This document shows, one piece after another, positions 1 to 60,312 of a DNA stretch of 64,000 bases (the first letter of the stretch is position 1; every line of letters begins with the position of its first letter). Below the pieces are notes generated by a model. It worked only from the letters and a program-made list of their open reading frames with translations. It did not search any database and was not told the DNA's origin. The position numbers were made by a program, and so were the translations under genes. The stretch is taken from NCBI GenBank assembly GCA_964584025.1, contig CAZOYE010000011.1, forward strand, positions 25,588-89,587, written 5' to 3'. This stretch comes from an uncultured Ignavibacteria bacterium (GTDB lineage Bacteria; Zixibacteria; MSB-5A5; CAIYYT01).

Positions 1-218
1 ATTACGTATCAAGGCATTATAGCGGACACATCATGTTTATAGTTAAATCCGCTTTCGAGTGTGGTTTTACTGTTAATCCAACCTTAACCCACTTAGCCAG
101 TGCGAGATAGCATATTCTCTGCAAGGGAGTGCATAGTGGACTTCCGTGGTAATCCGCTGTGGTGATGTGGAATTGTTGGGATTGCAGAGGCCAGTTTAGG
201 TGGTCTGAGAACCAGTGA

Positions 219-1133
219 CTATCTGGCGAAGCGGAAGGAAGCAGTCAACTGGTGTACGCCTTCCTGGGAGGCCGTGGGCCGGTAGGAATAGTCGAGACCC
301 ATCTGGCCGAAGAAAAGTCCGGCGCCGAGAGACAGGCCGTCAGCAGAAGCACCGTTGTCTTCCAATTCGCTGCTGTAGCCGACGCGAACCGCCAGCGCAG
401 AGCTGTAGAGGTACTCTAAGCCACCACCGAGAACGAAGCCCTCGCCATTGGTCTTGGAACCCGCCACCGAGAAGGTTGATGCACCGAGCGTGCGGTAAGA
501 GGCGCCGAGGCGAAGAGTTGCCGGTAAGTTAATGCTCTCTTCGATATACTTCAGGGAGCCCCCAAGATTGGCGTACTGGAGACCCAGGGAGAGCCGTCCA
601 AACTGGGCCATGGCTCCGGCATCGAAGGTAATTGTGCTTGCAGAATAGTCGGCGAGTTTCTCAATGACCGGCTTGGCGGTCACGCCCACAGAGAGGACGT
701 CGCTTAAGCGCTGCGAGTAGCCGAGGCTGATTTGCATCGAGTAGGCAGACAGGTCGCCGGTAGCGACGCCCGCAACGTCGTAGCCCTGGATGTTTCCATA
801 GCCGAGATAGGTGACACCGATACCAAGTCCCCCGCTGCGCAGTGGGATTGCCAAGCTGAGATTGTCGAGGCGCAGGTCCTGCATCAACTCGGAATGGGTA
901 GCGGAAAGCTCGCCAGTGCCGTTTAAAGCGATTGCTGCCGGGTTGTAGAATAGAGCGGCGGCGCCTGAGGCGTTAGAGACACACGCGTTGCCCAGAGCGG
1001 CCCCACGTGAGTAAACAGGAATATTCAGGAAATCTGCCGCGTGAGTGCCGGAACCGGCAAGGACGTTTCCTGACGCCAGAAACAGGTTGAGGGCGGCGAT
1101 TGCTATGTGTCTAATCCAAGTGAACGAGTTCAT
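219..1133 (-). CDS. PorV/PorQ-family (FadL-like) outer-membrane beta-barrel protein, T9SS-associated
   Basis: N-terminal signal peptide (MNSFTWIRHIAIAALNLFLASGNVLA). Motif YSRGAALGNA...SGAAALFYNPAAIA resembles the PorV/FadL N-terminal signature G.A.GGA...D.SA..WNPAGL. Alternating beta-strand-like composition throughout. Confidence 0.45.
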   Translation of the reverse strand: MNSFTWIRHIAIAALNLFLASGNVLAGSGTHAADFLNIPVYSRGAALGNACVSNASGAAALFYNPAAIALNGTGELSATHSELMQDLRLDNLSLAIPLRSGGLGIGVTYLGYGNIQGYDVAGVATGDLSAYSMQISLGYSQRLSDVLSVGVTAKPVIEKLADYSASTITFDAGAMAQFGRLSLGLQYANLGGSLKYIEESINLPATLRLGASYRTLGASTFSVAGSKTNGEGFVLGGGLEYLYSSALAVRVGYSSELEDNGASADGLSLGAGLFFGQMGLDYSYRPTASQEGVHQLTASFRFAR

Positions 1134-1183: not shown

Positions 1184-1200
1184 GGCAACGGATGTGCCAA
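1184..1200 (-). promoter_or_regulatory. sigma-54 (-24/-12) promoter candidate, about 45 nt upstream of the PorV/PorQ-like gene
   Basis: Minus strand reads TTGGCACATCCGTTGCC: TGGCAC-N5-TTGC, with GG and GC at the canonical 12-nt spacing. Confidence 0.5.
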
Positions 1201-1742
1201 GGACCAAACAACGGGATGAGGTGCATGCACTACTACCTTCAGATCCGATGAAGATCATTTCTAACTTTATCCCACACAAGATGTTCCGGAGCGCGCCCAA
1301 AAGCGTTTCGTCCATGCGCCGCCGGTTGACACCGTCTTGAAAGAGCGAAGTAGTATTCCCGCGCGTGTTGAATCGTTCAACAGCTTGGGGAGGCTCGTTG
1401 TACTTAGACAGCCCAACCCATTCTCCGACACCCTCCTATGGCCAAGTGTTCAGAGAATGAACTACTGTTTCTAATGTCGGCATGATCCCGGAGAACTTCA
1501 ATCCTTCAAGATCACCGAAAATGCCATTTCTATATATTGCTGTTCTTGGCCAGCAATGCCACTACAGATAGTTTTTGAGGGATCAAAAGTCAAATAAAAC
1601 TTGTGTTTGGATGCACAGTATCTGCAGGGCGAGGACATGCCGAGGGCCGGTCCGTCGGCGCGATTTAATATTGACTTAAGCGGTCGAAGTTGTTACCTTG
1701 CAGCAGAATACAAGATTCCACATCTATCAATTCGGCGGCAGG

Positions 1743-1758
1743 TGGTACCAACGTCGCC
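1743..1758 (+). promoter_or_regulatory. weaker sigma-54-like -24/-12 element upstream of the LOX/dockerin gene
   Basis: TGGTACcaacgTCGCC: GG/GC spacing is correct, with one mismatch in each element. It lies 25 nt upstream of the ATG at 1783, with an AGGAGA Shine-Dalgarno between. Confidence 0.3.
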
Positions 1759-10519: not shown

Positions 10520-11923
10520 CTAATTGGATTCGCTTTCAGAGTCGCTACCGACGGCAGCTTCGGCGCCGCCCATCATGCCGTATTCGTGGAGTTTGTTGCG
10601 CAAGGTACGAGTGGTGATGCCGAGGGCGTCCGCTGCCTTGGTGCGATTGCCGTCGAAGCCCTCCAGCGCCTTGAGGATCATCAGTTTTTCCATTTCGGCG
10701 AGCGGCAAGATACTGTCGGCTGCGACGGTGGAATGCCGCGCCAGTTCACCGAGGGCCAAATGGCTCGGCAGGTCGGCCTCGGTCAGGCGGTCGGACTTGC
10801 AGAGAACCACGGCGCGCTCGATGTAGTTTTCCAGCTCACGAATATTGCCGGGCCAGTGGTAGCCGAGAAGCAGTTTCATCGCTTTCTCGGTAACTCCTTT
10901 GACCTGCCGCTGGTTTTCCTCGTTGAATTTGCGAATGAAATGATCGGCGAGCATCGGGATATCATTCGGGCGCTTTCTCAAGGGCGGCAGGGTCAGCGGA
11001 ATGACGTTCAGCCGATAGAAGAGATCCTGGCGGAAGCGGCCGGCGGCGATTTCCTCTTCGAGATTACGATTGGTCGTGGCGACGAGGCGGACGTCAACCT
11101 TGATCGTCTGTCCGGAGCCGACGCGTTCGAATTCCCGCTCTTGAATGACGCGCAGGAGTTTGGCCTGAATGCTGGTGGGAATCTCGCTGACCTCATCAAG
11201 GAACAAGGTCCCACCGTCGGCCAGTTCGAAGCGACCGGAGTTCTGCTTGACGGCGTGCGTAAAGGCGCCCTTCTCATGGCCGAACAACTCCGATTCGATC
11301 AGTCCTTCGGGCAATGCAGCGCAGTTCAGTTTAACGAACGGCCCCTGCTTGCGCGGTGAATTGTAGTGAATCGCCCGCGCGATCAGCTCCTTGCCGGTAC
11401 CGGACTCGCCGCGGATCAGGATCGTCGAGCGCGATTTGGCCGCCGAAGCCAGGTCCTCGAGCAAGGTGAGGAGTTGTTTATCGGCGCCGACGATATTGCC
11501 GAAGTTGTAGCGGCTGCGGATTTCGCTGCGGAGAATGCGATTTTCAATAATTAACTGGCGGTGCCCAAGGGCCTTGTTGAGCGAGATTTCGAGTTCATCG
11601 GGGAGGACCGGTTTGAGAATGTAGTCAAAGGCGCCTTTCTTCATGGCGTCGACAGCGTCCTTTACGGTGCCGTGTGCGGTAATCATCATGACGACGGCTT
11701 CGGGAGCTTCGATCTTGATTTTGTCCAGCAGCTCAATGCCGCTCATGCCGGGCATCTTGACGTCGGACATGATGACGTCGAATTCGACGTTCTGAATCAG
11801 CGGCAATGCTGCTTCACCTGACGAGGCCGTTTGGACGTCATGGCCGAGCTTGGTCAAGACCGCAGAGAAGAATTCATTGACCAGGGCGTCGTCATCAACG
11901 ACGAGGATCGAACGCTTGCTCAT
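10520..11923 (-). CDS. sigma-54-dependent response regulator (NtrC family bEBP)
   Basis: Receiver domain (ILVVDDD...[10 protein letters not shown]), AAA+ sigma-54 activation domain ([27 protein letters not shown]-type motif), and a C-terminal Fis-type HTH ([19 protein letters not shown]). Confidence 0.9.
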
Positions 11924-13170
11924 GCCGACCTCAGGGGCAGTTCAATCGTAAAAGTTGAACCGCGATCAGGATTATTGGCGACCAGAATGGCGCCGCGATG
12001 GGCATCAACAACCTTCTTCACAAGCGCCAGACCGAGGCCGGTTCCGCCCTCACGCGTCGTGAAGAACGGAGTGAATATTTTTTCTCGAATGGCATCGGGG
12101 ACACTGCTGCCTTGATCGCAAACCTGGATGCGCGATTGACGACTATCGGCTGAGAGGCGAACGGTTATCGTGCCGCCACCCGGCATGGCTTCGTCGGCGT
12201 TTTTGAGCAAATTGATCAACGCCCCGGAGAGATTTTCACGATCGAAGGCACAGAGGGTCTTGCGGCGCGGCAATTCCAGGTGAAGCTGCGAGGCTGAAGA
12301 GCGCGAGGAGAGATCGACGCGGAAGAAGTCGACGGTTTCCTGCACAAATTCATTGAGGTCGGCTTCGCGCGGCTCGTGGCGCAGATCGCGGGCATATTCG
12401 AGCAGGGACGTCACCGAGCGATTGAGCTTGTCGACACCGGCGATGATTTTGTTCACATAGGCAATCTGCGGATGGTCCTCGCCAAGTTCGGAGCGCAGCA
12501 AGGCGGCGAAACCGGCGATACCGGAAAGCGGATTCCGGACTTCGTGGGCTACCACGGCGGCAACTTCACCCAAAGCGGCGAGGCTTTTGACGCGGGCGAC
12601 TTCGTCTTCCATGCGCCGCAGCTCGGTCAGATCGACAAAGACCTCGAGGGCACCAACGATCTGCTCGTTGGCATCGGTGATGGGGGCACTGGATGCCGAA
12701 ATCGGGACTTCTTCCCCGCCGGCAACCCCGATGCGTTTCTCAACCAGTTTGAAGCTCTTTTTGCCGTCGAGGATACTCAGCAACGAATGCTGGCGCGCGA
12801 GAGCGCCCGAGAGAATTTCGTTGTAGTACTTCCCCACGGCAGCCGAAGGTTTAACGCGCAGAATGTCGCAACCGGCTTTGTTGATCGCGTTGATACGGCC
12901 ATCGAGGTCGACCGTGAGGACACCGGCGGTCAAAGACTCCAAGACATTATGCAGGAAGTTACGGGTGCGAATGTTCTGATCGAGAGCCGCGACCAATTTC
13001 TCATTGGCGGCGGTGAGATCATCGGAAAGCCGCTGGTGCCGCACCTGCAGCGCGCTGTACGACTCGTTAAGCTGGCGGATCGTCTCGTTGAAACTGGCAA
13101 AGGTGTCATTGAAGACGGCCAATTGTTCCGCGCTGATCTCGGGAGTCGTTGCTTTTGGTTGCGGCTTCAT
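11920..13170 (-). CDS. PAS-domain sensor histidine kinase, cognate to the NtrC-like regulator
   Basis: H-box [10 protein letters not shown] and ATPase G-box [15 protein letters not shown] 4-nt overlap (ATGA) with the downstream regulator gene indicates translational coupling. Confidence 0.85.
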
Positions 13171-14167: not shown

Positions 14168-15577
14168 TCAGCGGTAACTTTCGCTTTCGATATCCTTTTC
14201 CCATTCAGGATTCTGGATCTCGCCCTTGATGGTGGAATGGACCAGGCGGTAGTTGCCGTAACCATCCTGATCGACAAAGAGACAATAATCACCGCCGGCC
14301 TGATTGGGCAGACGGTCGTAATACCATTTTTCGTACGGCTTTTGCCCCATTGCCGATGGCTTGCGTTCGACGTTGTCGGGCTGGCCATAAGTGATGTAGA
14401 CTCGGCCGCGATCGGTTTTCCAGCCATCTTCGCGCGCGATCAACGAGGTCGAGTAGTACTGATTGGCATAGGCAAACCGCCGAAAGATCTCGTTCTTGAA
14501 CGTATTGATCTTGCTTCCCGGCGAGGGATTTTTTCTCTCCCAGAACTGGCCGAGAAAGTTCTTCTTGCCCTCGAGGTCGAGATCGCGATAGAGGGCTTTT
14601 TCTTCCTTGGTCGTGACGTACTTGATGACGTTTTCCATCAGGTCAGCATCATCCTGGGTGAACTGGTCGGGCGTGATCTGCGTGGGCGCAAGCTGTTCGA
14701 AATTGTAGATCATCCAGAATTTCTTGGAAGCGCTGGTCTTGTTGCCGGTTGCCAGGTCTTCGACGATCACGCTGAGTTCATAGGTGCCGCCGGGGATGCC
14801 GGCAATGTTGACCTTTTCCATGAGCACGGCGCTCGTCCCCGGTTTGTGCCGACGTTTGACGGGGTACTCACGCATATCGAAGCCGTAGTTGTCGCGGAGC
14901 AAGGTCTTGACTTCAAAGTTCTCCCCTTCTCCCGTACCCGCGGCAAAGTTGTAGACTTCGGCATAGAAGTACACGAGCGTGTCCTCGTTGGAGAAATAGC
15001 GATTCGGGTTTGGCAGAACGCGCCGATTAGCCTTGATCAGCGACGAGAGGGGGTCGAAGCCCGGCGAGTTGACTTCGAGAGTATCGATCGAGTACGCCAA
15101 CTCGAGGTCGGACATCGCGAAGTGATCCGTCGTGAAGTCGCGCACCTGCAAGTCGAAGGTCGCAAGTCCGCTGCGCTTGGTCTTGTAGTCGACAGCGGTC
15201 ACTTTCATGCTATAGGCGCCACTCGGCAACAGCAGGGGCAGAACCTCGAAGATGCGAACGTCGGTCTTGTAGGCGTCATCCAGAAAGCGCACCCCCATCG
15301 GCACGAGTTTAGAACTGGAGTCGATTACGGCGCCGTGGTGGTCTTTGGCTTCAACGTACAACAGCGCCAGAGCCGAGTAGTAGTTGCTGTCGACTTCGAA
15401 CTGGAAGTCGGCCCGCTGGATGGCGACGTAGATTTCGACATAGGTTTTGCTGCGATCCTGGAAATAGATATACGAGCTTCCATCGGCCCAGACGCGAATC
15501 GGCTCGACGCCGCTTTGTGCCTGCAGCGCTGCGGCGCTAACGATCAGGAGCGCCATGGCCCATTGCATTGCTCTCAT
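14168..15577 (-). CDS. GWxTD domain-containing secreted protein (paralogue 2)
   Basis: C-terminal GWKTDRGRVYITYGQPD is the GWxTD motif. Signal peptide MRAMQWAMALLIVSAAALQAQ. Start taken at the internal Met to avoid overlapping the upstream paralogue. Confidence 0.7.
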   Translation of the reverse strand: MRAMQWAMALLIVSAAALQAQSGVEPIRVWADGSSYIYFQDRSKTYVEIYVAIQRADFQFEVDSNYYSALALLYVEAKDHHGAVIDSSSKLVPMGVRFLDDAYKTDVRIFEVLPLLLPSGAYSMKVTAVDYKTKRSGLATFDLQVRDFTTDHFAMSDLELAYSIDTLEVNSPGFDPLSSLIKANRRVLPNPNRYFSNEDTLVYFYAEVYNFAAGTGEGENFEVKTLLRDNYGFDMREYPVKRRHKPGTSAVLMEKVNIAGIPGGTYELSVIVEDLATGNKTSASKKFWMIYNFEQLAPTQITPDQFTQDDADLMENVIKYVTTKEEKALYRDLDLEGKKNFLGQFWERKNPSPGSKINTFKNEIFRRFAYANQYYSTSLIAREDGWKTDRGRVYITYGQPDNVERKPSAMGQKPYEKWYYDRLPNQAGGDYCLFVDQDGYGNYRLVHSTIKGEIQNPEWEKDIESESYR

Positions 15578-15603
15578 ACGAATATTAACTCCTGTCAGGG
15601 GCC

Positions 15604-16914
15604 TTATGGCCCGAGTGTCCCACGACTTCGCCAATCACCGTCGTACGGGTACTGCAACTGCATGTCGCCGTCCCCGCGCGTATCTTCAAAAACGAAAGTG
15701 CGCCGTTGCGTAAAATAGTACCAAACCTGATAGGGCTTGCGTCCGAGTTCGAAGGGATGATTATCGATGTCATCGGGCGCACCGTAGCGGATATAGATCA
15801 TGCCCCGATCCGATTGCCAGCCTTCGCGGTTGACGGTCGAATAGTATTGGTTCGCATAGCGGATGCGGCGATAGTACTCTTCGCGAAACTCGTTTTCAGG
15901 ACTGCTGGGTGTCGGGTCTTTAGACTTCCACCAGTCTTCAAACGCCTGTTCGCGGAGTGAATCGGGCGTCTGCTCGAGGGCCTTTTTTTCATCTTTCTTG
16001 AGCACGTACTTCAACTGGCTCAGCGCATAGTCAAAATCGTTGCGCAAGAGGCTCTGGAGCGACCACTTGACCTGAAAGGCTTCTTCCCGTTCAGCCAGAT
16101 TCTCGCCCTGGTAATCGAGTCGGACCTTGAGGAAGTAATCGCCCGGAACGAGGTCGCCGATCTCAACGAACTGCTGAACGCCGAGGACGGTAGTATCGAC
16201 CGGGACTTCATTGTCTTTGCGAACATCAAAGCCGGAGCGTCGGGCGCGGAGCTCGTACGACAGGGTCATTTGCTTGTTGACGTAGTCGGCTGCATAGATC
16301 TCGACATAGAACCCGAGGGGTTGCTCATCGGAGTCGAAGGCGCGCTCGACTGTCGGAACGGCAGCCAAGCCGTGTTTGTTGAAGGGCGAGCTGCTGTCGA
16401 CCGAAGTGATCTCCTGGATGAACTGAATATCCGAGAGATCGCGGGCGCGTTTGAAGGGGTAACTCTCGATCGTGCCTTCAATCGTCTGGACGTCGTTGGA
16501 GTTGTGGTCGATCAGCTTGCAGACCAGTCGATACTGCCCCGGCGGAATCGGTAGAGTCAGCTGATTGATCAAGAAGCCGCGATCGGACTTGGTGAGGTCG
16601 TAGCTATCAAGGACATAGGTACGCTCGACCGAGCGGCCGGTAACCTGCAGGTCGTGCTCGCCGAGGACGATAACGTTGACTTCGTAGTTGGCGATATACT
16701 TGTCGGCTTTCTTGACGTAGTTCAGGCCGTCATTGAAGATCTTGTAGTAGACCTCAAGACGATTCTGGGCTCCGGTATCGGCGAAGACGGCGACATCCAT
16801 GAAGAACTTCGAACGATCCAGGTTGATATCGTCGCCGCCTTCGGCTAAAAGCGCCGAAGCGGCAGCAAGAACCTGAATAAGAAGGATTGGAAGAAGGCTG
16901 CGAAATCTGGGCAT
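15604..16914 (-). CDS. GWxTD domain-containing secreted protein (paralogue 1)
   Basis: EGWQSDRGMIYIRYGAPDDID GWxTD motif. Signal peptide MPRFRSLLPILLIQVLAAASALLA. Architecture parallels the adjacent paralogue. Confidence 0.7.
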   Translation of the reverse strand: MPRFRSLLPILLIQVLAAASALLAEGGDDINLDRSKFFMDVAVFADTGAQNRLEVYYKIFNDGLNYVKKADKYIANYEVNVIVLGEHDLQVTGRSVERTYVLDSYDLTKSDRGFLINQLTLPIPPGQYRLVCKLIDHNSNDVQTIEGTIESYPFKRARDLSDIQFIQEITSVDSSSPFNKHGLAAVPTVERAFDSDEQPLGFYVEIYAADYVNKQMTLSYELRARRSGFDVRKDNEVPVDTTVLGVQQFVEIGDLVPGDYFLKVRLDYQGENLAEREEAFQVKWSLQSLLRNDFDYALSQLKYVLKKDEKKALEQTPDSLREQAFEDWWKSKDPTPSSPENEFREEYYRRIRYANQYYSTVNREGWQSDRGMIYIRYGAPDDIDNHPFELGRKPYQVWYYFTQRRTFVFEDTRGDGDMQLQYPYDGDWRSRGTLGP

Positions 16915-22914: not shown

Positions 22915-23646
22915 TTAGAACGCCATTGACAGGCCGGTAGTGATCAACGCCAAAACCGCGACGGGAATCAACACGGTCATCGCTGCCCGGCCCGTCTGGA
23001 AGTTGTACAGTACTTTGACGCCGATGATTAACAAGATTATCTGCCAAATGATAAAGACGTCGGTGTAAGTGTTGAGGAAGCTGTACAACGGCGACTCCAA
23101 CGTCTTGAGATCGCTCGGCAACATGAGTGCCAGTGATGTGCGAATATCGATCGAATCCTTGGCAAGCATCAGGGGCAGCTTGACGATCGTCGAAATCACC
23201 CAGGTCATGAAAGAGAGGCAGACTATTGTTAGAAGCTGCACAAAGCGCGCAGAGCCGCCCAGGATGACATTCCCCATGAGAATCAAAAGGCCGGCGCAAA
23301 TGACCATGATGATGCCCCACATGATCGGAGCTGTAATCACGCCGATGATGCGCCCAAACTTCTGGCCCATTTCGTAGTTCTGTTCCGCCTGGGCTTTTTG
23401 TTCCGGGGTGTAGCGGTCGGATTGCATCATGATTTCGTGCCCGTGCTTCATCGCCATCGGTGTGATGATCCAGGCAGAGGCAGTGAAAATCAAGAGAATC
23501 ACTACGAACGGAATGACCCATGCCGGCTTTTCCTTGACGACTTGAAAGACCTTGGTTGGTGAAAACAAGACATTCACCAACATAGACCAAGGCGACATTG
23601 ATTTTGTTTCAGTTACAGGCGTTTGAACGTTATCAAATTCGGTCAT
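22915..23646 (-). CDS. Yip1-domain membrane protein
   Basis: Five predicted transmembrane helices in the Yip1/DUF1282 pattern. Start taken at the internal Met (MTEFDNV), which has a GGGAGG RBS and lies downstream of the sigma-54 element. Confidence 0.6.
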   Translation of the reverse strand: MTEFDNVQTPVTETKSMSPWSMLVNVLFSPTKVFQVVKEKPAWVIPFVVILLIFTASAWIITPMAMKHGHEIMMQSDRYTPEQKAQAEQNYEMGQKFGRIIGVITAPIMWGIIMVICAGLLILMGNVILGGSARFVQLLTIVCLSFMTWVISTIVKLPLMLAKDSIDIRTSLALMLPSDLKTLESPLYSFLNTYTDVFIIWQIILLIIGVKVLYNFQTGRAAMTVLIPVAVLALITTGLSMAF

Positions 23647-23706
23647 ATTACCTCCCTCGACCAGTCTTGACGAACGCAACTTATGAGCAAAAGTTTCAAA
23701 AAACAA

Positions 23707-23723
23707 CCGCTAAGGGTGTGCCA
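23707..23723 (-). promoter_or_regulatory. sigma-54-type -24/-12 element upstream of the yip1-tolC-macAB operon
   Basis: Minus strand TTGGCACACCCTTAGCG: TGGCAC-N5-TAGC, with GG/GC spacing 12 and one mismatch in the -12 box. Confidence 0.4.
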
Positions 23724-40859: not shown

Positions 40860-42770
40860 TTACTTCACAACTTCATAGTCGGCATCGACGGCTTCCCCAC
40901 CGGACTGGGCTTGCGAACTGTTCGCACCGGCGGGCTCTTGCTGTGGCTGCGCCGACTGCGAACGCTGCTGCGCCGCCTGCTGATAGAGTTGCGACGCCGC
41001 ATTCTGCATGATCGTCTGGAGCCGGTCAGTTTCTGACTTCATGGCAGAGAAGTCGGATCCCTTGGTCAGCTCTTTGACCTTCTCAATCTGGCGTTCCAGT
41101 TCGGCTTTGACAGTCGCATCGATCTTGTCGCCGCTCTCCTTCACGAATTTCTCGCATTGGAAAGCCATCTGGTCGGCGTTGTTCTTGACCTCGACATCCG
41201 CCTTGCGCCTGCGGTCGGCTTCGGCATTGGACTCGGCATCGCGCACCATCTTCTCGATCTCTTGTTTGGAGAGGCCGGAAGAGGACTCAATGCGGATATT
41301 CTGCACCTTACCGGTACCGAGATCGCGCGCTGAGACATTCAGGATGCCGTTGGCGTCGATGTCGAAAGTGACTTCGATTTGCGGAACGCCGCGCGGCGCG
41401 GCCGGGATGCCATCAAGAAAGAAACGTCCGATCGTGCGATTGTCGAGGGCCATCTCGCGTTCGCCCTGCAGCACGTGAATCTCCACCGAGGTCTGGCTGT
41501 CGCCTGCCGTCGAGAACACCTGCGATTTTTTGGTCGGAATCGTCGTGTTGCGCTCGATCAATTTAGTAAAGACACCGCCCAGGGTTTCGATACCGAGCGA
41601 AAGCGGCGTGACATCGAGGAGCAGGACGTCTTTGACGTCGCCCGCGAGCACGCCACCCTGAATGGCGGCGCCGATCGCCACGACTTCGTCGGGATTGACG
41701 CCCTTGTGCGCTTCACGACCGAAGAAGCGTTCGACTTCCTCGACCACTTTCGGCATGCGGGTCATACCCCCCACAAGGACGACCTCGCCGATATCGGACG
41801 GCGAGACCTTGGCATCGGCCATCGCCTTGCGCACCGGTTCCATACAGCGCGTGATCAGGTCCTCGACCATCCCCTCGTATTTCGCCCGCGTGAGCGTGAT
41901 ATTGAGATGGCGCGGGCCGGAAGCGTCGGCAGTGATAAACGGCAGATTGATTGTAGTTTCTTTGACCGTCGACAATTCGATCTTGGCCTTCTCAGCGGCT
42001 TCCTTCAAGCGTTGCAACGCCATCGGATCGCGCGACAGGTCAATGCTGTCGGTTTTCTTGAATTCGGCAACCAGCCAATCGATGATGCGCTTGTCGAAAT
42101 CGTCGCCACCAAGATGCGTGTCGCCGTTAGTAGAGAGCACTTCGAAGACGCCCTCGCCCAATTCGAGTATTGAGATATCAAACGTGCCGCCGCCCAGGTC
42201 GAAGACAGCGATCTTCTGCGCCTTCTTCTTGTCGAGCCCGTAGGCCAGCGCGGCTGCGGTCGGCTCGTTGATAATGCGCATGACCTCGAGACCGGCAATC
42301 TTGCCGGCGTCTTTGGTAGCCTGCCGCTGCGCATCATTGAAATAGGCCGGGACGGTGATGACCGCTTTGGTAACTTTCTGGCCGAGATAGTCCTCGGCGG
42401 CCTGCTTGAGTTTGCCCAGGATCACGGCTGAGATCTCTTGCGGCGTAAACTCCTTGCCCTCAATCTCGATCACAGCCAGGCCGTTGCCGGCGCGCTTGAC
42501 CTTGTACGGGAAGTTCTTGATCTCTTCCGTCGTTTCGTCAAAGCGCCGCCCCATGAACCGCTTAACGGAGAAGACGGTATTGAGCGGGTTCGTGATCGCC
42601 TGGCGCTTGGCAATCTGGCCGACCAGGCGCTCTGATCCTTTCATGCCGACGACGGACGGCGTGGTGCGTCCGCCTTCAGCGTTGGCGATCACGACCGGTT
42701 CCTTGCCTTCCATCACGGAGAGGCAGGAGTTGGTCGTGCCCAGGTCGATGCCGATGATTTTATCTGACAT
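40860..42770 (-). CDS. dnaK: molecular chaperone DnaK (Hsp70)
   Basis: [18 protein letters not shown] and DLGGGTFD motifs plus full Hsp70 architecture. Start set at [11 protein letters not shown], which has an AAGGAGG RBS. Confidence 0.92.
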
Positions 42771-42886
42771 ATCTGTTGTTCCTCCTTCAGCGGGCGATCT
42801 CGAATCGTCCGCCTTTGCATCAGAAAGCCCGCCCAGTGACTCCGAGCGGGCTTGACGTTTCACTCGTCGCGTTTGAGAATTCTCGC

Positions 42887-43336
42887 TTAGCCGATCTTAA
42901 TGTCGATCTGCTTCGGCTTCACCTCTTCAGCCTTCGGCAGGACGATCTCAAGCACACCGTTCTTGTAGTTGGCCTGAATCTTCTGCGCATCGACATCCTT
43001 GGAGAGACGCAGGCTGCGCGTGAAGGTGCCGTAGATCCGCTCGATATGGCGGTAGTCCTTCTCCTCGTTGCGCGACTCGTACTTGCGTTCGCCGGTCACG
43101 ACGAGAGTGTTGTCTTCGAACTGCACCTTGATATCGTTCTTGTCGACGCCCGGCACATCGAGGTGGACGACGAAGCTCTCGGGGGTTTCGTGCACATCGG
43201 CACGCGGGACCCAACCGGCTTCGCTTTCAACCATCGACCCGCCATTGAAGCCGTTGAAAATCTCGGTGAACACGCGGTCCATTTCGTTGCTCAGGAGACC
43301 GAACCGATTCCGGGGCTTGCTGACTGTGAGATACAT
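42887..43336 (-). CDS. Hsp20/alpha-crystallin family small heat shock protein
   Basis: 149 aa with the alpha-crystallin domain pattern (…[21 protein letters not shown]…GVLEIVLPK). Confidence 0.85.
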
Positions 43337-43414
43337 GAGTGTTTCCTCCTCTGCTATCCGTTAGTTTACTTACTTTCGTTCACTTGCCGCGATCTTTGTC
43401 GCGACGCACTAACC

Positions 43415-43436
43415 TATTGCAGAGAGCGTGCCAACG
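43415..43436 (-). promoter_or_regulatory. sigma-54 (-24/-12) promoter candidate upstream of hsp20-dnaK
   Basis: Minus strand TTGGCACGCTCTCTGCAAT: TGGCACG-N4-CTGCA with GG/GC spacing 12, about 80 nt upstream of the hsp20 ATG. No CIRCE element seen. Confidence 0.5.
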
Positions 43437-43588
43437 CTTTGTGCTCTCGCGTAATTCGTTGCAATATCATCGGTTACGCAACACGCAAAAAGTTTGTGAT
43501 GATTGTCAGACAGTGCCACCATGGCAGGATTCATGCCAGAGCGGCACGATCTCTGTCAGGCTGTCAGTTAAGATGGCAGAGGTGAGTC

Positions 43589-50495: not shown

Positions 50496-51689
50496 TTACT
50501 TGAGAAAAAGCAGTTTGAGCGCTCCTGATTTGCCGTATTGACGGCAAAAATAAATGCCGCTGGAAACAACATTTCCTGATGAATCCCGGCCATCCCACAT
50601 GAAGTAGTCTCTCCCATCGACGTTGAAGACGGTCACCAATCGGCGCACTTTGCGACCGAGAAGATCCATGATCACCATCTCCGCGGGGGAATCAGAGACG
50701 ATGGTCGTTTCCGAGTTGAATGGATTGGGGAAGCTCGACATCGAGCCGTTGGATGGGATGTCCTGTGCCGCCTGGTCGCCGGCGCTCGTCATGAGGTCGA
50801 TGAGAAGCGCATCAGACTTCGGCCCCAGATTATCGCCGAGCCAGGCAGCGACTGAAAGGTACTTGCCGTCGATTTCTTCTCGAGAGAAGACATAGTGCAT
50901 CGCCGAGGTGCCAGGCACAATTTGCTCCGGCATAGTAGCGGCTGCATCTCCAATACTGATCATGAAGATCGAAAAGGAATCAGGAAATTCCGCGGAAGGG
51001 GCGAAGCTGCCGATAGTGTCGCAGACGCTATAGGACATGCGCAGATGGACGTTCATATCAGTCAGATCAATCCAGGTGATTGACTCGCCTTCCGGAGTGC
51101 CGAACCACTGCCCCTCGGCGCCGATCGTGTAAGAGACCGCCAAGGCCGGTGCGGACGGAGTTGCTTCGAGCCACTCGACCATGACGTACACGGCATTACC
51201 GACACTGCAAAGCGCTTGAACCGGAAAGCGGCACCATTGCGCCGCTGAAGCGATTGTAGAACAGGCGACAATGTTCTCCCAGAGGGGGGCCTCCGACGAT
51301 GTGCCTGGCAGATGATCATAGATTGCCAGGCGAAACGGCGACATGAAGTCCCCGGGCTCCTCGACGTGCGGATCGCTCGGCCAGAGGCGCAGTTCCACGG
51401 CTTCGACAGCGATCTCCGGCCTTTCAACAGGCAGTTCCCTGACAAATCTGGCGCCGACGTACTCCGACGAATAGAACACAAATGAGATCGGTGTCTCATT
51501 ACGATCGCCGGCGAGTTGGCTGTTTACTCCGGGATAGTACCAGGCGACGACGACACTGTCGTCTCTTGCGGCATAGGAGAGTCCGTATGGCGCGTGGATT
51601 TCATCCGACTTGATTTCAGTTGAAACCGCCATGGCCGCCGCCAGGACGACAGCAAACGGAACCCTTATTTGAGCACCCCTACCATTCAT
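50496..51689 (-). CDS. secreted protein with a T9SS C-terminal sorting domain (CTD)
   Basis: Signal peptide MNGRGAQIRVPFAVVLAAAMAVST. The C-terminal ~80 aa FPNPFNSETTIVSDSPAEMVIMDLLGRKVRRLV...WDGRDSSGNVVSSGIYFCRQYGKSGALKLLFLK matches the Por-secretion CTD pattern (NPFN...DxxGRxV...WDGxxxxGxxxxSGxYF.R......KLLLxK). Confidence 0.75.
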   Translation of the reverse strand: MNGRGAQIRVPFAVVLAAAMAVSTEIKSDEIHAPYGLSYAARDDSVVVAWYYPGVNSQLAGDRNETPISFVFYSSEYVGARFVRELPVERPEIAVEAVELRLWPSDPHVEEPGDFMSPFRLAIYDHLPGTSSEAPLWENIVACSTIASAAQWCRFPVQALCSVGNAVYVMVEWLEATPSAPALAVSYTIGAEGQWFGTPEGESITWIDLTDMNVHLRMSYSVCDTIGSFAPSAEFPDSFSIFMISIGDAAATMPEQIVPGTSAMHYVFSREEIDGKYLSVAAWLGDNLGPKSDALLIDLMTSAGDQAAQDIPSNGSMSSFPNPFNSETTIVSDSPAEMVIMDLLGRKVRRLVTVFNVDGRDYFMWDGRDSSGNVVSSGIYFCRQYGKSGALKLLFLK

Positions 51690-51791
51690 GGATATGTTGG
51701 AAGATATTAGATCGTGCGCTGAGGCGCAAGCCATGAAATGGCTCAAGCATAATAGAATCAGTTCTCGATGATGTAATGATCGAAGAGCGGA

Positions 51792-52652
51792 TTAGTCGCG
51801 CGCCGAACTCAGCAATTCGCCCTTGGTGGTGGAATAGACTTCACGAACGGAGGCGAATTCGAACTCGGAAAGCATGCGGCGAAGTTTGGGTTCGACGGTC
51901 GAGAGATTCGTGTAATGGCGCAGTCGGCTTTTTAAAGCCACGCCGCTCTCGCGCGGTTGATCGGGATCGAGTTCCCAGGGATGAAGGTAGATCATGGCCG
52001 GATAGCCGGCTGCATTATATAAACGAATGGCTCGTCGTGTGTACCAGTACGGAAACATGCGAAAACTTCCGCCGCCACAAGCCGGCAGCCGTTTGCCGAG
52101 AAAGACGCAGGTTACCGGCGGGATTTCCAACAGCCGACCCTGGCTGGTATTGATGAAGTGTGGATAGCGAGGAGCGCTGGGGTCGCCGTAAAGATCGTGG
52201 CGGATCGGATAGATGCTTGAGTCATACTCGATGCCACATTTCACGAGAATTTCCCAGATCCACTCGCGTCCGCGTTCGGCCGAAAAGGTGGGAGCGCGAT
52301 AACCTTTGACCCGGACTCCGGAGGCATCTTCCAAAGCCCCGATCGAGCGGCGGATATCGTCCTCGAATTGCTTCTCGTCGAGGCGTGTCAGCGTATCGTG
52401 GCCGTAGCCGTGGGTCGCCAGTTCGTGGCCGCGCGCCTTGATCATTGCCATAATGTGCGGGAAGCGCTCGGCGAGCCAGCCAAGTGTGAAGAAAGTCGCG
52501 GTGGCGTGATATTCGTCGAGAATATCGAAAATCCGCATCATGTTCATCGTGAGCCGGCTTTGGCGCTTGGACCACTCCGAACGCGGAATGTGGCTGTAAA
52601 ACGCTTCGACCTGGAAGTGCTCTTCCACGTCAAATGACAGAATGTTCTTCAT
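51792..52652 (-). CDS. polysaccharide deacetylase, exopolysaccharide-locus subfamily (XrtA/PEP-CTERM-locus-type)
   Basis: MKNILSFDVEEHFQVEAF N-terminus typical of that subfamily. NodB-like His/Asp residues (HGYGHD). Confidence 0.7.
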   Translation of the reverse strand: MKNILSFDVEEHFQVEAFYSHIPRSEWSKRQSRLTMNMMRIFDILDEYHATATFFTLGWLAERFPHIMAMIKARGHELATHGYGHDTLTRLDEKQFEDDIRRSIGALEDASGVRVKGYRAPTFSAERGREWIWEILVKCGIEYDSSIYPIRHDLYGDPSAPRYPHFINTSQGRLLEIPPVTCVFLGKRLPACGGGSFRMFPYWYTRRAIRLYNAAGYPAMIYLHPWELDPDQPRESGVALKSRLRHYTNLSTVEPKLRRMLSEFEFASVREVYSTTKGELLSSARD

Positions 52653-56975: not shown

Positions 56976-58715
56976 CTACTTCTTCACGGTAATCAGATTT
57001 TCATCGAACATAAATGACTTATTCTTGCCGGTGCTCTTCGCCTGCAAGAGCGCCATGTCGGCACAATATATTAATCGGTCAATCCGTTGTGCGTCATTAG
57101 GATAAATCGCTCCCCCCAGTGATACGGTGATTTTGAGACTGGCGGGAGTGAATTTGTCGCGGAATTCGTTTTCGAGAATGGCGTTGCGCAAGCGATCCAT
57201 GAAATTTATGCAGTCGGCGGCGTTGGTATCAGGCATAACAATACAGAACTCCTCGCCTCCATAGCGCGACACGATATCGATAGAGCGTACCGACTTAGTC
57301 AGGAGTCCGCCAAGCTGCTCCAACAGAAAATCTCCTGATTGATGACCGTAAGTATCGTTAAAAACCTTGAACCCGTCAACATCAAAGATGACCAGGCCGA
57401 GGTGGCGATTAAATCGCTGGGCGCGAGTCATTTCCTGCTGAAGCCGCTTGTAGAAGTAGCGGTAGTTGTAGAGACCGGTCATCTCGTCGGTGTACGAAAG
57501 CCGCTCGATTTTCTCGAAATTGGTGAGGTTGTCGAGGATCAAGCCGAACATGCGGCTGAAGGTTGAGAAGACCTCGATATTCTCCGGGCTGAATTTCTCC
57601 GGCGGGCAGTTCATCCCGATATATCCATCTCGCGGATTGGAGCCGTTCAAAAATCCCAGGCAACGAATACCGGCCGCCTTTAACTGGGCAATTGCCTCCG
57701 AGCCGTCCTGGGAGTAGGCCTCCAGAGAAAGGACAGGCCTCTCAGGGCTGAGGAGTTCGAACAAGGAATGATTGGCCGCCAACGTGAAGTCAGCGGGGAG
57801 ATTCGGGAGCTTTCCCCGATCTCCTTGACGCGTGACCGTGCGCCTTTCGGCGTCATGAACCAGAAGAACCGCTGAATCAACTTTGAACTCCTCCGCAAGC
57901 AGCCGCAGGTAGGCCGCGTAGAGCTTGTTGCGATCGTAGATCCGCGCCAGCTTATCGAGCGCCGAAATGAGTACGGTGGGGTTGCGGCGATTCGCGGTCT
58001 CATGCGATGAGCGGTCGTTTTTGAGTGCATCGAGCTGCTGACGCAGTTTCTGGACGGTGAGGTTATGTTTGTAAGTAGCATCGTCGAGATGCTTGAAATT
58101 TCCGACCTGGTCAGCCAGCGACAACAAGAAGGGCCGGATGATTCGAAACGGCACGTCCTGAGGCGTGGAGAAGGCGATGAAATAGTTGCAGCGCCCGCTT
58201 GTCAGAACCGGCACGGCCTGATCGAACGGATGGGGGTCATTGCCCTGGCTGCCGTCCCCGGGGTAGACCTTGCGAAACGGAATCGATGATTCCCGTTTTT
58301 CCAGCATGTGCTCGAGTTCGGGACGGAAGAGGACGCGATAGTTTTTGAGACTTTCGCGCTCTGCGCCAAAGAGATCGGTCAGCATGTAGCCGCGCTTGCG
58401 GCGGGCGAAGACGGCTACCGTGTTAAGTCCAAAATCGTCGTGAAAATAGCGGGCGAGCGAGGTCACCTGTTGATCGAGTTGTCGGCGCTGCGAGAAGTCC
58501 TTGTGAATCTGCTCGACCTGGTGCAGGTAGAGGCGCACGATGGTTTCGAGGCGATCGGTGCCTCGTCTTCTCAGCAGGATAGCATAGCTAAAACCACCGA
58601 CGAGGGCGACGACGATCGCCGCCACAAGCAGCGGGCGCGACCATTGATCGACAAGCAAAGCTCCGCCGATCAGCGCCGTAATGGTCGCCATCAAAGCTGC
58701 CAGAAAATAGAGCAT
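56976..58715 (-). CDS. membrane-anchored diguanylate cyclase (GGDEF) with a GAF-like sensor
   Basis: Two N-terminal transmembrane helices. Central GAF-like region. C-terminal GGDEF domain with RYGGEEFCIVMP and product-inhibition-site-like RxxD. Confidence 0.85.
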   Translation of the reverse strand: MLYFLAALMATITALIGGALLVDQWSRPLLVAAIVVALVGGFSYAILLRRRGTDRLETIVRLYLHQVEQIHKDFSQRRQLDQQVTSLARYFHDDFGLNTVAVFARRKRGYMLTDLFGAERESLKNYRVLFRPELEHMLEKRESSIPFRKVYPGDGSQGNDPHPFDQAVPVLTSGRCNYFIAFSTPQDVPFRIIRPFLLSLADQVGNFKHLDDATYKHNLTVQKLRQQLDALKNDRSSHETANRRNPTVLISALDKLARIYDRNKLYAAYLRLLAEEFKVDSAVLLVHDAERRTVTRQGDRGKLPNLPADFTLAANHSLFELLSPERPVLSLEAYSQDGSEAIAQLKAAGIRCLGFLNGSNPRDGYIGMNCPPEKFSPENIEVFSTFSRMFGLILDNLTNFEKIERLSYTDEMTGLYNYRYFYKRLQQEMTRAQRFNRHLGLVIFDVDGFKVFNDTYGHQSGDFLLEQLGGLLTKSVRSIDIVSRYGGEEFCIVMPDTNAADCINFMDRLRNAILENEFRDKFTPASLKITVSLGGAIYPNDAQRIDRLIYCADMALLQAKSTGKNKSFMFDENLITVKK

Positions 58716-58727
58716 AGACTATCGGTT

Positions 58728-58768
58728 TATATAATCAGCGGCGAGCGCGGTTGCAAGCGCAAAGCCAC
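58728..58768 (-). promoter_or_regulatory. overlapping sigma-54-type (-24/-12) and sigma-70-type promoter signals upstream of the GGDEF-EPS operon
   Basis: Minus strand TGGCTTTGCGCTTGCAA: TGGCTT-N5-TTGCA, spacing 12. The same TTGCAA (58751-58756) plus a 17-nt spacer and TATATA (58728-33) gives a sigma-70 consensus. 12 nt to the ATG. Confidence 0.4.
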
Positions 58769-58798: not shown

Positions 58799-59533
58799 TC
58801 AGGCCTTGCGACTATAACGAAAGCGGTTCTTTTTGGACAAAAGCGAATGGCGGCGGAGAATGCTCCAGACGCCCCACCAACCGATCTTCTGGCCATCCCC
58901 GTTGGCATCGCTGCGAATAATGCGCACGATTTCGCCAATGGAGTAGAAGGGGTCGGTCTTGACCAGGCTGAGCACGAGGCTCTCTACGCTGGGGCGAGCG
59001 GTGACTGACGGAGCGGTTTTTGTCTCCGGCGGGGTCACTGCCGAGGCCTTGATTCGGGCCGTCGGCAGATCGGCTTCGGCTGTGGCGACTTCGACCTGGC
59101 GGGCGATGGATGCTTTTTCGGCTTCCTTCTGGTTATGCTGGCGGACTTCCGCGGCGGCGTCTTCACCGGAATGCCCGTTGCCACGAAACTCGATTTTGGC
59201 CTTTTCGATATTGTCGTAGGCTTTCAAGATCGAGTCGAATTCAAGCAGCTCGAAGATCTCATAGACACTGGGGATCATTCGCGCGAGTTTGATGTCGCCG
59301 GAGTTGGACTTGATCTCGCGGATATTGCTGATGAAGATGCCCCAGCCGGCGGAAGAGATATAATCGACGCCGGCAAGATCGATGATGATCTTGTAGCGCT
59401 TCTGCTCCATCAGCGAGTTCATGACGCGTTCGAGTTCGGATGAGGTCATCGTGTCGATGACACCGTCGACGCGCACCAGAGTGACGTCGCCGCTTTGCCC
59501 GGCCGTATCCAGAGAGATTCTTATGTCGTCCAT
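58799..59533 (-). CDS. STAS-domain protein (anti-sigma-factor antagonist-like) with a C-terminal extension
   Basis: TLVRVDGVIDTMTSSELERVMNSL...IIDLAGVDYISSAGWGIFI is a STAS/SpoIIAA fold signature. The extra ~120 aa C-terminal region is Ala/Glu-rich. Confidence 0.75.
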   Translation of the reverse strand: MDDIRISLDTAGQSGDVTLVRVDGVIDTMTSSELERVMNSLMEQKRYKIIIDLAGVDYISSAGWGIFISNIREIKSNSGDIKLARMIPSVYEIFELLEFDSILKAYDNIEKAKIEFRGNGHSGEDAAAEVRQHNQKEAEKASIARQVEVATAEADLPTARIKASAVTPPETKTAPSVTARPSVESLVLSLVKTDPFYSIGEIVRIIRSDANGDGQKIGWWGVWSILRRHSLLSKKNRFRYSRKA

Positions 59534-60312
59534 GCCTGCTTCTCGTCCTTTGCGGCCGCCACCGGATGGCCGTTTTGTGAATAGTTGGCGATTTCCTTTG
59601 CGAACAAGAAGTAATCGAGCGCACCGTTGGAATAAGGCGCATGTTCGAACACCGTCTTGTATAACATCTGCGATTCTTTCAGTTGCGTGTTGATCCGGAT
59701 CTTGGATGCAAACAACTTGTCACCGTACTCCGTGAGCAACTGGTTGTAGATCGTTTTTGAGACCTTGGTCCTCGTGTCAAAAAACGTCGCGAGAATCCCC
59801 AGCAACTCGACCTTGCGGCCGATTTTCCGGTAAAGATCGTCAAGTAACTTAAGGGTCTTCTTGGCGCCCTCACAAGCAAAAAAATCCATCGAGACCGGGA
59901 TCACGACGCCGTCGACGTAGTTGAGGACATTCATATTGATCAGGTTGATTGCCGGGGGGCAATCGCAAATCACGTAATCGGTGCCGCGCAGATTTTCGAG
60001 CACCTGCCGGAGGCGCTGTTCGCGGTCGACCTGGCGCGCCAGGAACAACTCCGTTTCGACGATGCGCGTGTTCCCGGAATCGATCAAGAAGAGGTTGGGG
60101 CGCAGCGGCGCGATCTCGACTTCTCCGGTTGTGAGGAGTTCTGCCAGACCCTTCTGCGGCTGGACGTTGAAAGCCATCGACACGTTCGCCTGGCTGTCGC
60201 AGTCGACGATAAGGGTCCTCTTCCCCGACATGGCGAGACAATGCGCCAGGTTGATCACCGTGGTGGTCTTGCCGGTTCCGCCTTTACAGGTTATGACCGC
60301 AATTTTCTTCAA
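59521..60312 (-). CDS. ParA/MinD-family P-loop ATPase
   Basis: Deviant Walker A KGGTGKTTTVINLA. DCDSQANVS motif. Confidence 0.85.
   Translation of the reverse strand: MKKIAVITCKGGTGKTTTVINLAHCLAMSGKRTLIVDCDSQANVSMAFNVQPQKGLAELLTTGEVEIAPLRPNLFLIDSGNTRIVETELFLARQVDREQRLRQVLENLRGTDYVICDCPPAINLINMNVLNYVDGVVIPVSMDFFACEGAKKTLKLLDDLYRKIGRKVELLGILATFFDTRTKVSKTIYNQLLTEYGDKLFASKIRINTQLKESQMLYKTVFEHAPYSNGALDYFLFAKEIANYSQNGHPVAAAKDEKQAWTT

Follow-up and report, generated by a model that had tools for sequence, protein, structure and literature searches.

Promoters of the NtrC/NifA type have an architecture of tandem dyad sites located ~100 bp upstream of a -24/-12 element. The NtrC site is TGCACC-N5-GGTGCA, and the NifA site is TGT-N10-ACA. 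A comparable layout is found before hsp20, an alpha-crystallin small heat-shock gene, in the 64-kb stretch of DNA analyzed here (contig CAZOYE010000011.1, positions 25,588 to 89,587 of the forward strand; hereafter, the window). A second candidate sigma-54 promoter precedes a PorV/PorQ-family outer-membrane gene, and three more motifs of the same appearance are probably lookalikes.

Sigma-32 control has been characterized mainly in Proteobacteria. For Desulfovibrio heat-shock genes, sigma-54 promoters were reportedly predicted by Chhabra and colleagues in 2006. In Escherichia coli, the small heat-shock gene ibpB is sigma-54-dependent (Kuczynska-Wisnik et al. 2001, as cited and confirmed by chromatin immunoprecipitation in PMC2831329). 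ibpB is also under sigma-32, its sigma-54 promoter is inside the ibpAB operon, and dnaK served as a sigma-54-negative control in that paper. In Myxococcus xanthus, the NtrC-type pair HsfB/HsfA controls the heat-shock gene lonD (Ueki & Inouye, as listed in PMC3892784). More broadly, sigma-54 has been termed the 'controller of the bacterial exterior' and is often tied to envelope and exopolysaccharide (EPS) genes (Francke et al. 2011, PMC3162934).

Our favored explanation, to which we give a probability of roughly 0.78, is that the window contains two genuine sigma-54 promoters, one before hsp20 with its enhancer and one before the PorV/PorQ-family gene, and that the motifs before yip1, the GGDEF gene, and the LOX gene are lookalikes. 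The evidence is composed of motif presence, enrichment, cross-species conservation, and enhancer architecture. The features of the hsp20 region are as follows.

42887-43336, minus strand: hsp20, alpha-crystallin small heat-shock protein (Pfam HSP20, E-value 9e-27)
43418-43433, minus strand: predicted sigma-54 -24/-12 promoter of hsp20, TGGCACGCTCTCTGCA (TGGCAC-GCTCT-CTGCA), the top matrix score in the window
43514-43526 and 43534-43546, no strand assigned: tandem palindromes TGCC-N5-GGCA, candidate enhancer, centers 20 bp apart

The hsp20 promoter has its GG at 43432/43431 and its GC at 43420/43419. The motif ends 82 nt 5' of the ATG at 43336, and the predicted start site is near 43407. The window was compared to six related species whose Hsp20 proteins are 72-99% identical, and a motif of 16-18 bits is found 78-82 nt before the hsp20 ATG in all seven. 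TTGGCAC and CTGC are invariant in 7/7 species, while the spacers take six different sequences. The sigma-54-type promoter proposed here by an earlier, sequence-only reading of the window is thus borne out by its fixed position and invariant GG and GC across the seven species.

The palindromes are centered ~87 and ~107 bp upstream of the hsp20 -24 motif. No other exact copy of TGCC-N5-GGCA is present in the window, and relaxing the pattern raises the total to four. At L002 and L004-L007, the same positions are kept as TGCC/TGCT-N5-GGCA/GACA. The arrangement of the palindromes matches the classical enhancer layout of bacterial enhancer-binding proteins (bEBPs). Two other functions have to be weighed, namely that the palindromes are repressor operators, analogous to the controlling inverted repeat of chaperone expression (CIRCE) or the HspR-associated inverted repeat (HAIR), or that they represent a second upstream sigma-54 promoter. 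Inverted-repeat repressor control is common for heat-shock genes. Moreover, the adjoining palindrome half-sites make a 12.7-bit matrix match with GG-N10-GC at 43523-43538, 105 nt upstream of the hsp20 site, and L002, L004, and L006 share this motif. However, the palindromes are ~90-110 bp from the -24/-12 element and ~190-210 bp from the ATG, distances that are typical of enhancers rather than of operators. In L005 and L007, GACA half-sites keep the palindromes yet break the GG of the 43523-43538 motif, and a single palindrome is found at the same distance in other phyla. Operators or a second promoter are thus quite improbable, and an enhancer is the preferred reading of the palindromes.

The wider comparison extended to 71 hsp20 loci of more distant origin, drawn from many phyla, in which motifs were sought within 220 nt of the start. 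Motifs of at least 12 bits number 10 in the sense orientation versus 1 in antisense, with 0.3 expected. Palindromes of the TGYC-N5-GRC(A/G) type, a looser pattern that was widened after the distant loci had been seen, are present 30-190 nt upstream in 11/18 loci with a motif of at least 10 bits versus 3/53 loci without one (12 palindromes versus 0.36 expected; Fisher 3e-6). The strict pattern, TGYC-N5-GRCA, is a slightly tightened form of the one first written from Zixibacteria loci. Strict palindromes are found in Planctomycetota (L040; L061, Kuenenia; L078) and Verrucomicrobiales (L048, L070), with their centers 92-110 nt 5' of the motif; L078 has an additional copy at 139 nt. These distances match the 87 and 107 nt of Zixibacteria, and the comparison points to an activator-enhancer-sigma-54-hsp20 module that is common to several phyla.

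We tentatively propose, at less than even odds, that the hsp20 promoter belongs to an undescribed cross-phylum regulon for heat or proteotoxic stress, in which one orthologous bEBP would recognize TGYC-N5-GRCA dyads ~90-110 bp upstream of the sigma-54 promoter of a small heat-shock gene, followed in this lineage by dnaK. The range of this putative regulon appears to include Zixibacteria, Planctomycetota (including the anammox genera Kuenenia and Brocadia), Verrucomicrobiota, and several lineages of the Fibrobacteres-Chlorobi-Bacteroidetes (FCB) group. No description of a palindrome, sigma-54, and hsp20 module was found in the incomplete set of literature searched, which included Planctomycetes, Bacteroidetes, and Zixibacteria. 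A bEBP is encoded within 4 kb of hsp20 in 2/80 loci (L009 and L018), neither of which has a good sigma-54 motif. The hsp20 activator cannot be named by adjacency. If true, the proposal would add a third widespread mode of heat-shock control to sigma-32 and the repressor/operator systems, of which HrcA-CIRCE is an example.

A related pattern was seen at L011, L013, L028, L035, L054, and L064, which come from metagenome-assembled genomes (MAGs) labeled Bacteroidota or Chromatiales. Here, TTGGCAyGG...TGA is located ~55-66 nt before hsp20 with an A replacing the -12 C, and TGCC-N5-GGCG palindromes are often found upstream. These loci may have a lineage-specific form of the -12 element.

Downstream of hsp20, two features bear on the transcription of dnaK.

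40860-42770, minus strand: dnaK (Pfam HSP70, 881 bits)
42818-42853, minus strand: 12-bp GC-rich hairpin followed by CTTTnTGATG, between hsp20 and dnaK

The position of the N-terminus places the true dnaK ATG at 42770, and dnaK is directly downstream of hsp20 in 6/6 relatives. All 12 pairs of the hairpin are kept in six species, one of them via compensatory changes, and the hairpin may be a partial terminator or a 3'-end stabilizer. No conserved promoter was found in the 50 nt after the hairpin, and dnaK is probably transcribed by read-through from the hsp20 promoter. Alternatively, the hairpin could be a full terminator that leaves dnaK on its own unseen promoter. The CIRCE element, TTAGCACTC-N9-GAGTGCTAA, has no match anywhere in the window at up to three mismatches, and its absence from these heat-shock genes had been correctly noted from the sequence.

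The hsp20 leader has features of its own. A small hairpin with a few compensatory changes is located at the 5' end of the predicted leader (43380-43405, minus strand), and the Shine-Dalgarno region and first codons of hsp20 are invariant. The leader hairpin could be a stability or thermosensing element. An Rfam scan of the window at the gathering threshold returned zero matches; the conserved leaders and hairpins thus do not belong to any known RNA family.

The second promoter is located near the start of the window.

219-1133, minus strand: PorV/PorQ-family outer-membrane beta-barrel gene, 304 aa (NCBIfam NF033709, 167.7 bits, cutoff 90)
1184-1199, minus strand: predicted sigma-54 -24/-12 promoter of the PorV/PorQ-family gene, TGGCACATCCGTTGCC (TGGCAC-ATCCG-TTGCC), an exact consensus match
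1260-1329, minus strand: conserved block, candidate enhancer (upstream activating sequence), ~105-110 nt upstream of the -24 element, with the core GCTTTTGGGCG at 1294-1304

The product of 219-1133 scores under the equivalog cutoffs of both PorV and PorQ, and its matches to Pfam PorV and OMP_b-brl are weak. The promoter has GG at 1198/1197 and GC at 1186/1185, and its motif ends 51 nt 5' of the ATG at 1133. Transcription would be predicted to start near 1173. In five orthologous loci with 51-100% protein identity, yGGCAy-N5-TTGCC is invariant and in the same place, and the flanks diverge. The claim of a sigma-54-type promoter at this gene is therefore upheld by conservation in five species, down to 51% protein identity. 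The GCTTTTGGGCG block also has invariant columns. Its pattern is found once per orthologous PorV/PorQ locus, in the same place, and is kept in L087 despite a different upstream gene. The block is a candidate enhancer whose sequence is unrelated to the hsp20 palindromes, and this difference implies that another activator is used.

Genes for a Bac_transf sugar transferase, PEGA/DUF5683, and Fn3 proteins come after the PorV/PorQ-like gene in the four relatives that were examined. A second conserved sigma-54-like site in these relatives, TGGCA-N6-wTTGCT (14-15 bits), is found 60-75 nt before Bac_transf, and the equivalent region of our sequence is beyond window position 1.

L082:3708, L085:3672, L086:3703, and L087:3723, plus strand: sigma-54-like site before Bac_transf

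The polysaccharide cluster that adjoins PorV/PorQ may also be sigma-54-driven. Separately, the spacer downstream of the PorV/PorQ-like gene (100-135, minus strand) contains TGCAC-N5-TTGCA...AATRTGCTA, which is common to L082 and L085-L087. The element resembles a dyad (GTGCAA-N4-TTGCAC in L087), and it may act as the enhancer of the Bac_transf promoter.

The sequence-only reading had listed good sigma-54 elements before four genes and a weaker one before a fifth. All five -24/-12-like motifs were confirmed at their positions. Four are in the minus orientation, matching the coding strand of their respective downstream genes, and the weak one is on the plus strand. The three in addition to hsp20 and PorV/PorQ are as follows.

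23708-23723, minus strand: sigma-54 lookalike before yip1, TGGCACACCCTTAGCG, ending 62 nt before the ATG at 23646
58752-58767, minus strand: sigma-54 lookalike before the GGDEF gene, TGGCTTTGCGCTTGCA, ending 37 nt before the ATG at 58715
1743-1757, plus strand: weak sigma-54 lookalike before the LOX/dockerin gene, TGGTACCAACGTCGC, 26 nt before the LOX ATG at 1783

The GG and GC are exactly 10 nt apart in a TGGCAC-N5-TTGC-like context at 5/5 sites. A plain consensus search of the window with up to two mismatches was not enriched, returning 54 matches versus 56.6 expected. Both strands (128 kb of strand space) were therefore scored with a sigma-54 weight matrix, which is our own approximation of the published TGGCACG-N4-TTGCW consensus. 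The scores were 17.0 bits for hsp20, 13.7 for PorV/PorQ, 12.5 for GGDEF, 12.2 for yip1, and less than 8 for LOX. Six matches reach at least 12 bits: the first four of these, 43523-43538, and one inside yip1. Five of the six are in sense-oriented upstream spacers, which represent 3% of strand space (binomial P 1.6e-7), and none of 2000 spacer shuffles reached five such matches; one of the five (43523-43538) is composed of two hsp20 enhancer half-sites. The placement of the best-scoring motifs is non-random, without telling which individual sites work.

That every motif is a chance match and none is a sigma-54 promoter is consistent with the unenriched consensus search and with the presence of rpoN being deduced from the bEBP. 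It is contradicted by the placement statistics, the footprints at two sites across 5-7 species, the enhancer architecture, and an activator encoded in the window, and we regard it as extremely unlikely.

Conservation separates the remaining motifs from the two promoters. The yip1 comparison was made with protein homologues and their contigs from five other species. The gene order of the efflux operon, Yip1-OEP-HlyD-ABC-MacB-MacB, was confirmed. At the yip1 site, GG and/or GC are lost in 5/5 of the other species. In L097, at 94% identity, TAGG replaces TAGC and the essential -12 C is lost from a spacer that is otherwise near-identical. L089, a 69% relative, reads CAGCAA...TAGA, and L091, L092, and L088 have no similarity there. 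All six species, at 53-100% protein identity, have the 20-mer GTTGTTTTTTGAAACTTTTG (23688-23707, minus strand) and most of the leader unchanged. The yip1 site is probably non-functional, and the sigma-54 promoter claimed for yip1-tolC-macAB fails even against its 94%-identical relative.

A weak sigma-54 promoter could also have been gained recently, and in this species only, over an ancestral promoter at yip1 and possibly at GGDEF. The high-scoring upstream-spacer matches that are left over exceed the 0.1 expected, and most differences between the yip1 16-mer and L089 go toward the consensus. Working against a gain are the G for the essential -12 C in L097, which is the closest relative, the poor -12 region of yip1 (TAGCG), and the fact that the GGDEF match takes its TTGCA 'free' from a conserved block. 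We consider such a gain unlikely and prefer to read both sites as lookalikes.

Three observations concern the efflux region itself. The GTTGTTTTTTGAAACTTTTG region could be a TTGTTT-N17-TAAsTT promoter or an operator of the efflux operon, and it has no Rfam match. A match inside yip1 (23117-23132, minus strand), an exact TGGCAC-N5-TTGCC located 240 nt before tolC, was considered as a tolC promoter and rejected; it is uninformative because conserved Leu-Ala-x-x-Leu-Pro codons spell TGGC...TTGCC. Two adjacent genes downstream of the MacB genes encode GWxTD-domain proteins (14168-16914, minus strand).

The EPS operon was confirmed as GGDEF-Wza-Wzz-TPR-ParA-like with an XrtA-system deacetylase (TIGR03006, 339 bits, cutoff 276.2). 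No GG is present at the -24 position of the GGDEF site in 3/3 relatives (L094, L095, and L096). The GGDEF upstream regions share an invariant CTTGC and an invariant TTATATAA (58727-58734), the latter located 17 nt downstream of the former. TTGCAA (58751-58756) and TTATATAA would form a sigma-70-like -35/-10 pair, and with this reading the proposed '-12 TTGC' is a -35 element. With TTGC and TTATATAA alone kept, the sigma-54 promoter proposed for the GGDEF-EPS operon is not supported.

The conserved GGDEF ATG follows TTATATAA by only ~12 nt and lacks a Shine-Dalgarno sequence, an arrangement that suggests a near-leaderless mRNA; one deposited protein (P0038) starts 8 codons later. Directly upstream of the operon is a partner-switching-like module (58799-63131, minus strand) whose synteny is kept in L095 and L096. 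It is composed of a 940-aa HATPase_c_2-HAMP-SpoIIE phosphatase-HTH protein, a ParA-like ATPase, and a STAS protein. This module is more likely than sigma-54 to be the GGDEF-EPS regulator. The XrtA-system polysaccharide deacetylase ends the operon (50496-52652, minus strand), and its neighbor has a C-terminus that weakly resembles a type IX secretion system sorting tail.

The LOX site aligns to no GG/GC pair in L082, L085, and L086. Instead, TTGACT (1671-1676)-N17-TAyCTT is conserved upstream of LOX. The weaker site claimed for the LOX/dockerin gene, unconserved and scoring less than 8 bits, was not sustained. Since a strict sigma-70 scan did not call the conserved blocks at GGDEF, yip1, and LOX, the conservation of these blocks is what was observed and their sigma-70 assignment is putative. 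As far as the alignments indicate, the yip1, GGDEF, and LOX motifs are chance or species-specific lookalikes beside other conserved blocks.

The window also encodes a sigma-54 activator and a kinase.

10520-11923, minus strand: NtrC-family response regulator bEBP (Pfam PF00072 Response_reg; PF00158 Sigma54_activat, 240.7 bits; PF02954 HTH_8)
11920-13170, minus strand: PAS histidine kinase (Pfam PAS, HisKA, HATPase_c)

The bEBP aligns end to end with the Aquifex NtrC4 structure 4l4u (E-value 3e-111) and is below every NCBIfam equivalog cutoff. With a complete sigma-54 activator among the genes of the window, the organism should use sigma-54. Residues 218-223 of this bEBP, its sigma-54 contact loop, read GAFTHA, not GAFTGA, which is atypical. 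Among the 150 nearest bEBP representatives, 97 have GAFTGA, 2 have GAFTHA, and 16 have the position-5 variants D/S/H/N; the nearest representative, at 60% identity, has GAFTGA. From these sequences, the GAFTHA variant alone would not argue against function. PrsR/PrsK, the regulators of PEP-CTERM/XrtA EPS, were considered as identities for the bEBP and kinase and rejected (TIGR02915, 395.9 versus 502.6; TIGR02916, 83.1 versus 300).

The regulator pair was described as cognate to the sigma-54 motifs. The pair itself is encoded as described, at 10520-13170, and the cognate link was not substantiated. The bEBP is 9 kb from the PorV/PorQ promoter and 30 kb from the hsp20 promoter, a search of the window found no copy of the hsp20 enhancer palindrome near it, and the adjoining FadL-like gene has a canonical TTGACA-N17-TATATT promoter. 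From the latter, the lineage clearly also uses canonical promoters. The identities of the genes (PorV/PorQ, Hsp20, DnaK, the efflux operon, GGDEF-EPS, and the regulator pair) were all confirmed by profile matches.

These data bear on the original view that the bEBP at 10520-11923 controls the four main sites as working promoters of a single regulon for envelope, efflux, stress, and EPS functions. All four keep a coding-strand GG-N10-GC, are at plausible distances from an ATG, and score at least 12 bits. In addition, the window encodes a bEBP paired with a kinase, and the association of sigma-54 with envelope and EPS genes is a frequent one (PMC3162934). However, none of the other species examined, a 94%-identical one included, keeps both essential dinucleotides at yip1 and GGDEF, and the lack of conservation at these sites means that a single sigma-54 regulon spanning efflux and cyclic di-GMP/EPS is not supported. 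The two conserved promoters carry different upstream conserved elements, no palindrome copy is near the bEBP, and the gene beside the bEBP has TTGACA-N17-TATATT. We judge a single regulon to be very unlikely.

Several points weigh against two genuine sigma-54 promoters. The hsp20 -12 element reads CTGC, not TTGC, and no consensus for integration host factor (IHF) was found between the hsp20 enhancer and promoter. No RpoN-box motif was found in the window or in 97 sequences (0.72 Mb), which is too little DNA to be informative. The only bEBP of the window has no link to either conserved promoter, and its contact loop is atypical. To these can be added the approximate matrix, the palindrome pattern widened after the fact, the silence of the strict sigma-70 scan at the lookalikes, and the possible full terminator before dnaK. 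RpoN dependence, the start sites, the identity of the activator, a heat or proteotoxic inducing signal, and dnaK read-through are predictions from sequence.

With two genuine promoters as the preferred reading, a mechanism can be proposed. A dedicated bEBP would bind the two TGCC-N5-GGCA palindromes, which are on the same DNA face and two helical turns apart. The bound bEBP would then loop to the closed complex and open the hsp20 promoter with ATP. The hsp20 transcript would meet the conserved hairpin, and part of it probably continues into dnaK. The PorV/PorQ-family gene would be driven from TGGCAC-N5-TTGCC with its own candidate enhancer ~105-110 bp upstream.

The lineage is treated here as Zixibacteria-like, within the FCB group. 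Hsp20 is 99% identical to a protein of the MAG contig CAZNWJ010000011.1, which was deposited as 'uncultured Ignavibacteria', and for three other proteins of the window, every named homologue is from Zixibacteria.

As first proposed, the finding is largely ordinary, as precedents exist and 3/5 sites fail. Its value is mainly in the cross-phylum hsp20 module and in a worked example of false matches. Good-looking and well-placed -24/-12 matches can be false, and cross-species conservation separates them cleanly. If one conserved activator underlies the hsp20(-dnaK) module, it would explain heat-shock switching in several poorly studied phyla, and the hsp20 palindrome would offer a handle for finding the sensor.

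Compared to the described systems, the hsp20 locus resembles E. coli ibpB in that an alpha-crystallin heat-shock gene is read from a -24/-12 promoter in both. Unlike ibpB, the sigma-54 promoter of the window hsp20 is the only conserved promoter element, it is accompanied by a tandem enhancer, and dnaK is directly downstream. The likeness to HsfB/HsfA is in a kinase and an NtrC-type sigma-54 activator that switch on a heat-shock gene, which is likely to be the logic at hsp20. The target differs, Lon protease in that system versus Hsp20/DnaK here, as does the phylum. The NtrC/NifA architecture is shared, with two dyads, two helical turns apart, ~90-110 bp upstream of the promoter. The hsp20 half-site, TGCC-N5-GGCA (TGYC-N5-GRCA), differs from both the NtrC and NifA sites, and there is no intervening IHF consensus. 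The exterior theme of PMC3162934 is followed by the sigma-54 sites before an outer-membrane gene and, in relatives, before an adjoining sugar-transferase/polysaccharide cluster. The efflux and GGDEF-Wza-Wzz-XrtA-type EPS operons of the window, which the sequence-only reading had grouped with them, have no conserved sigma-54 promoters. By these comparisons, both of the promoters that we read as genuine belong to already known kinds, envelope and small heat-shock.

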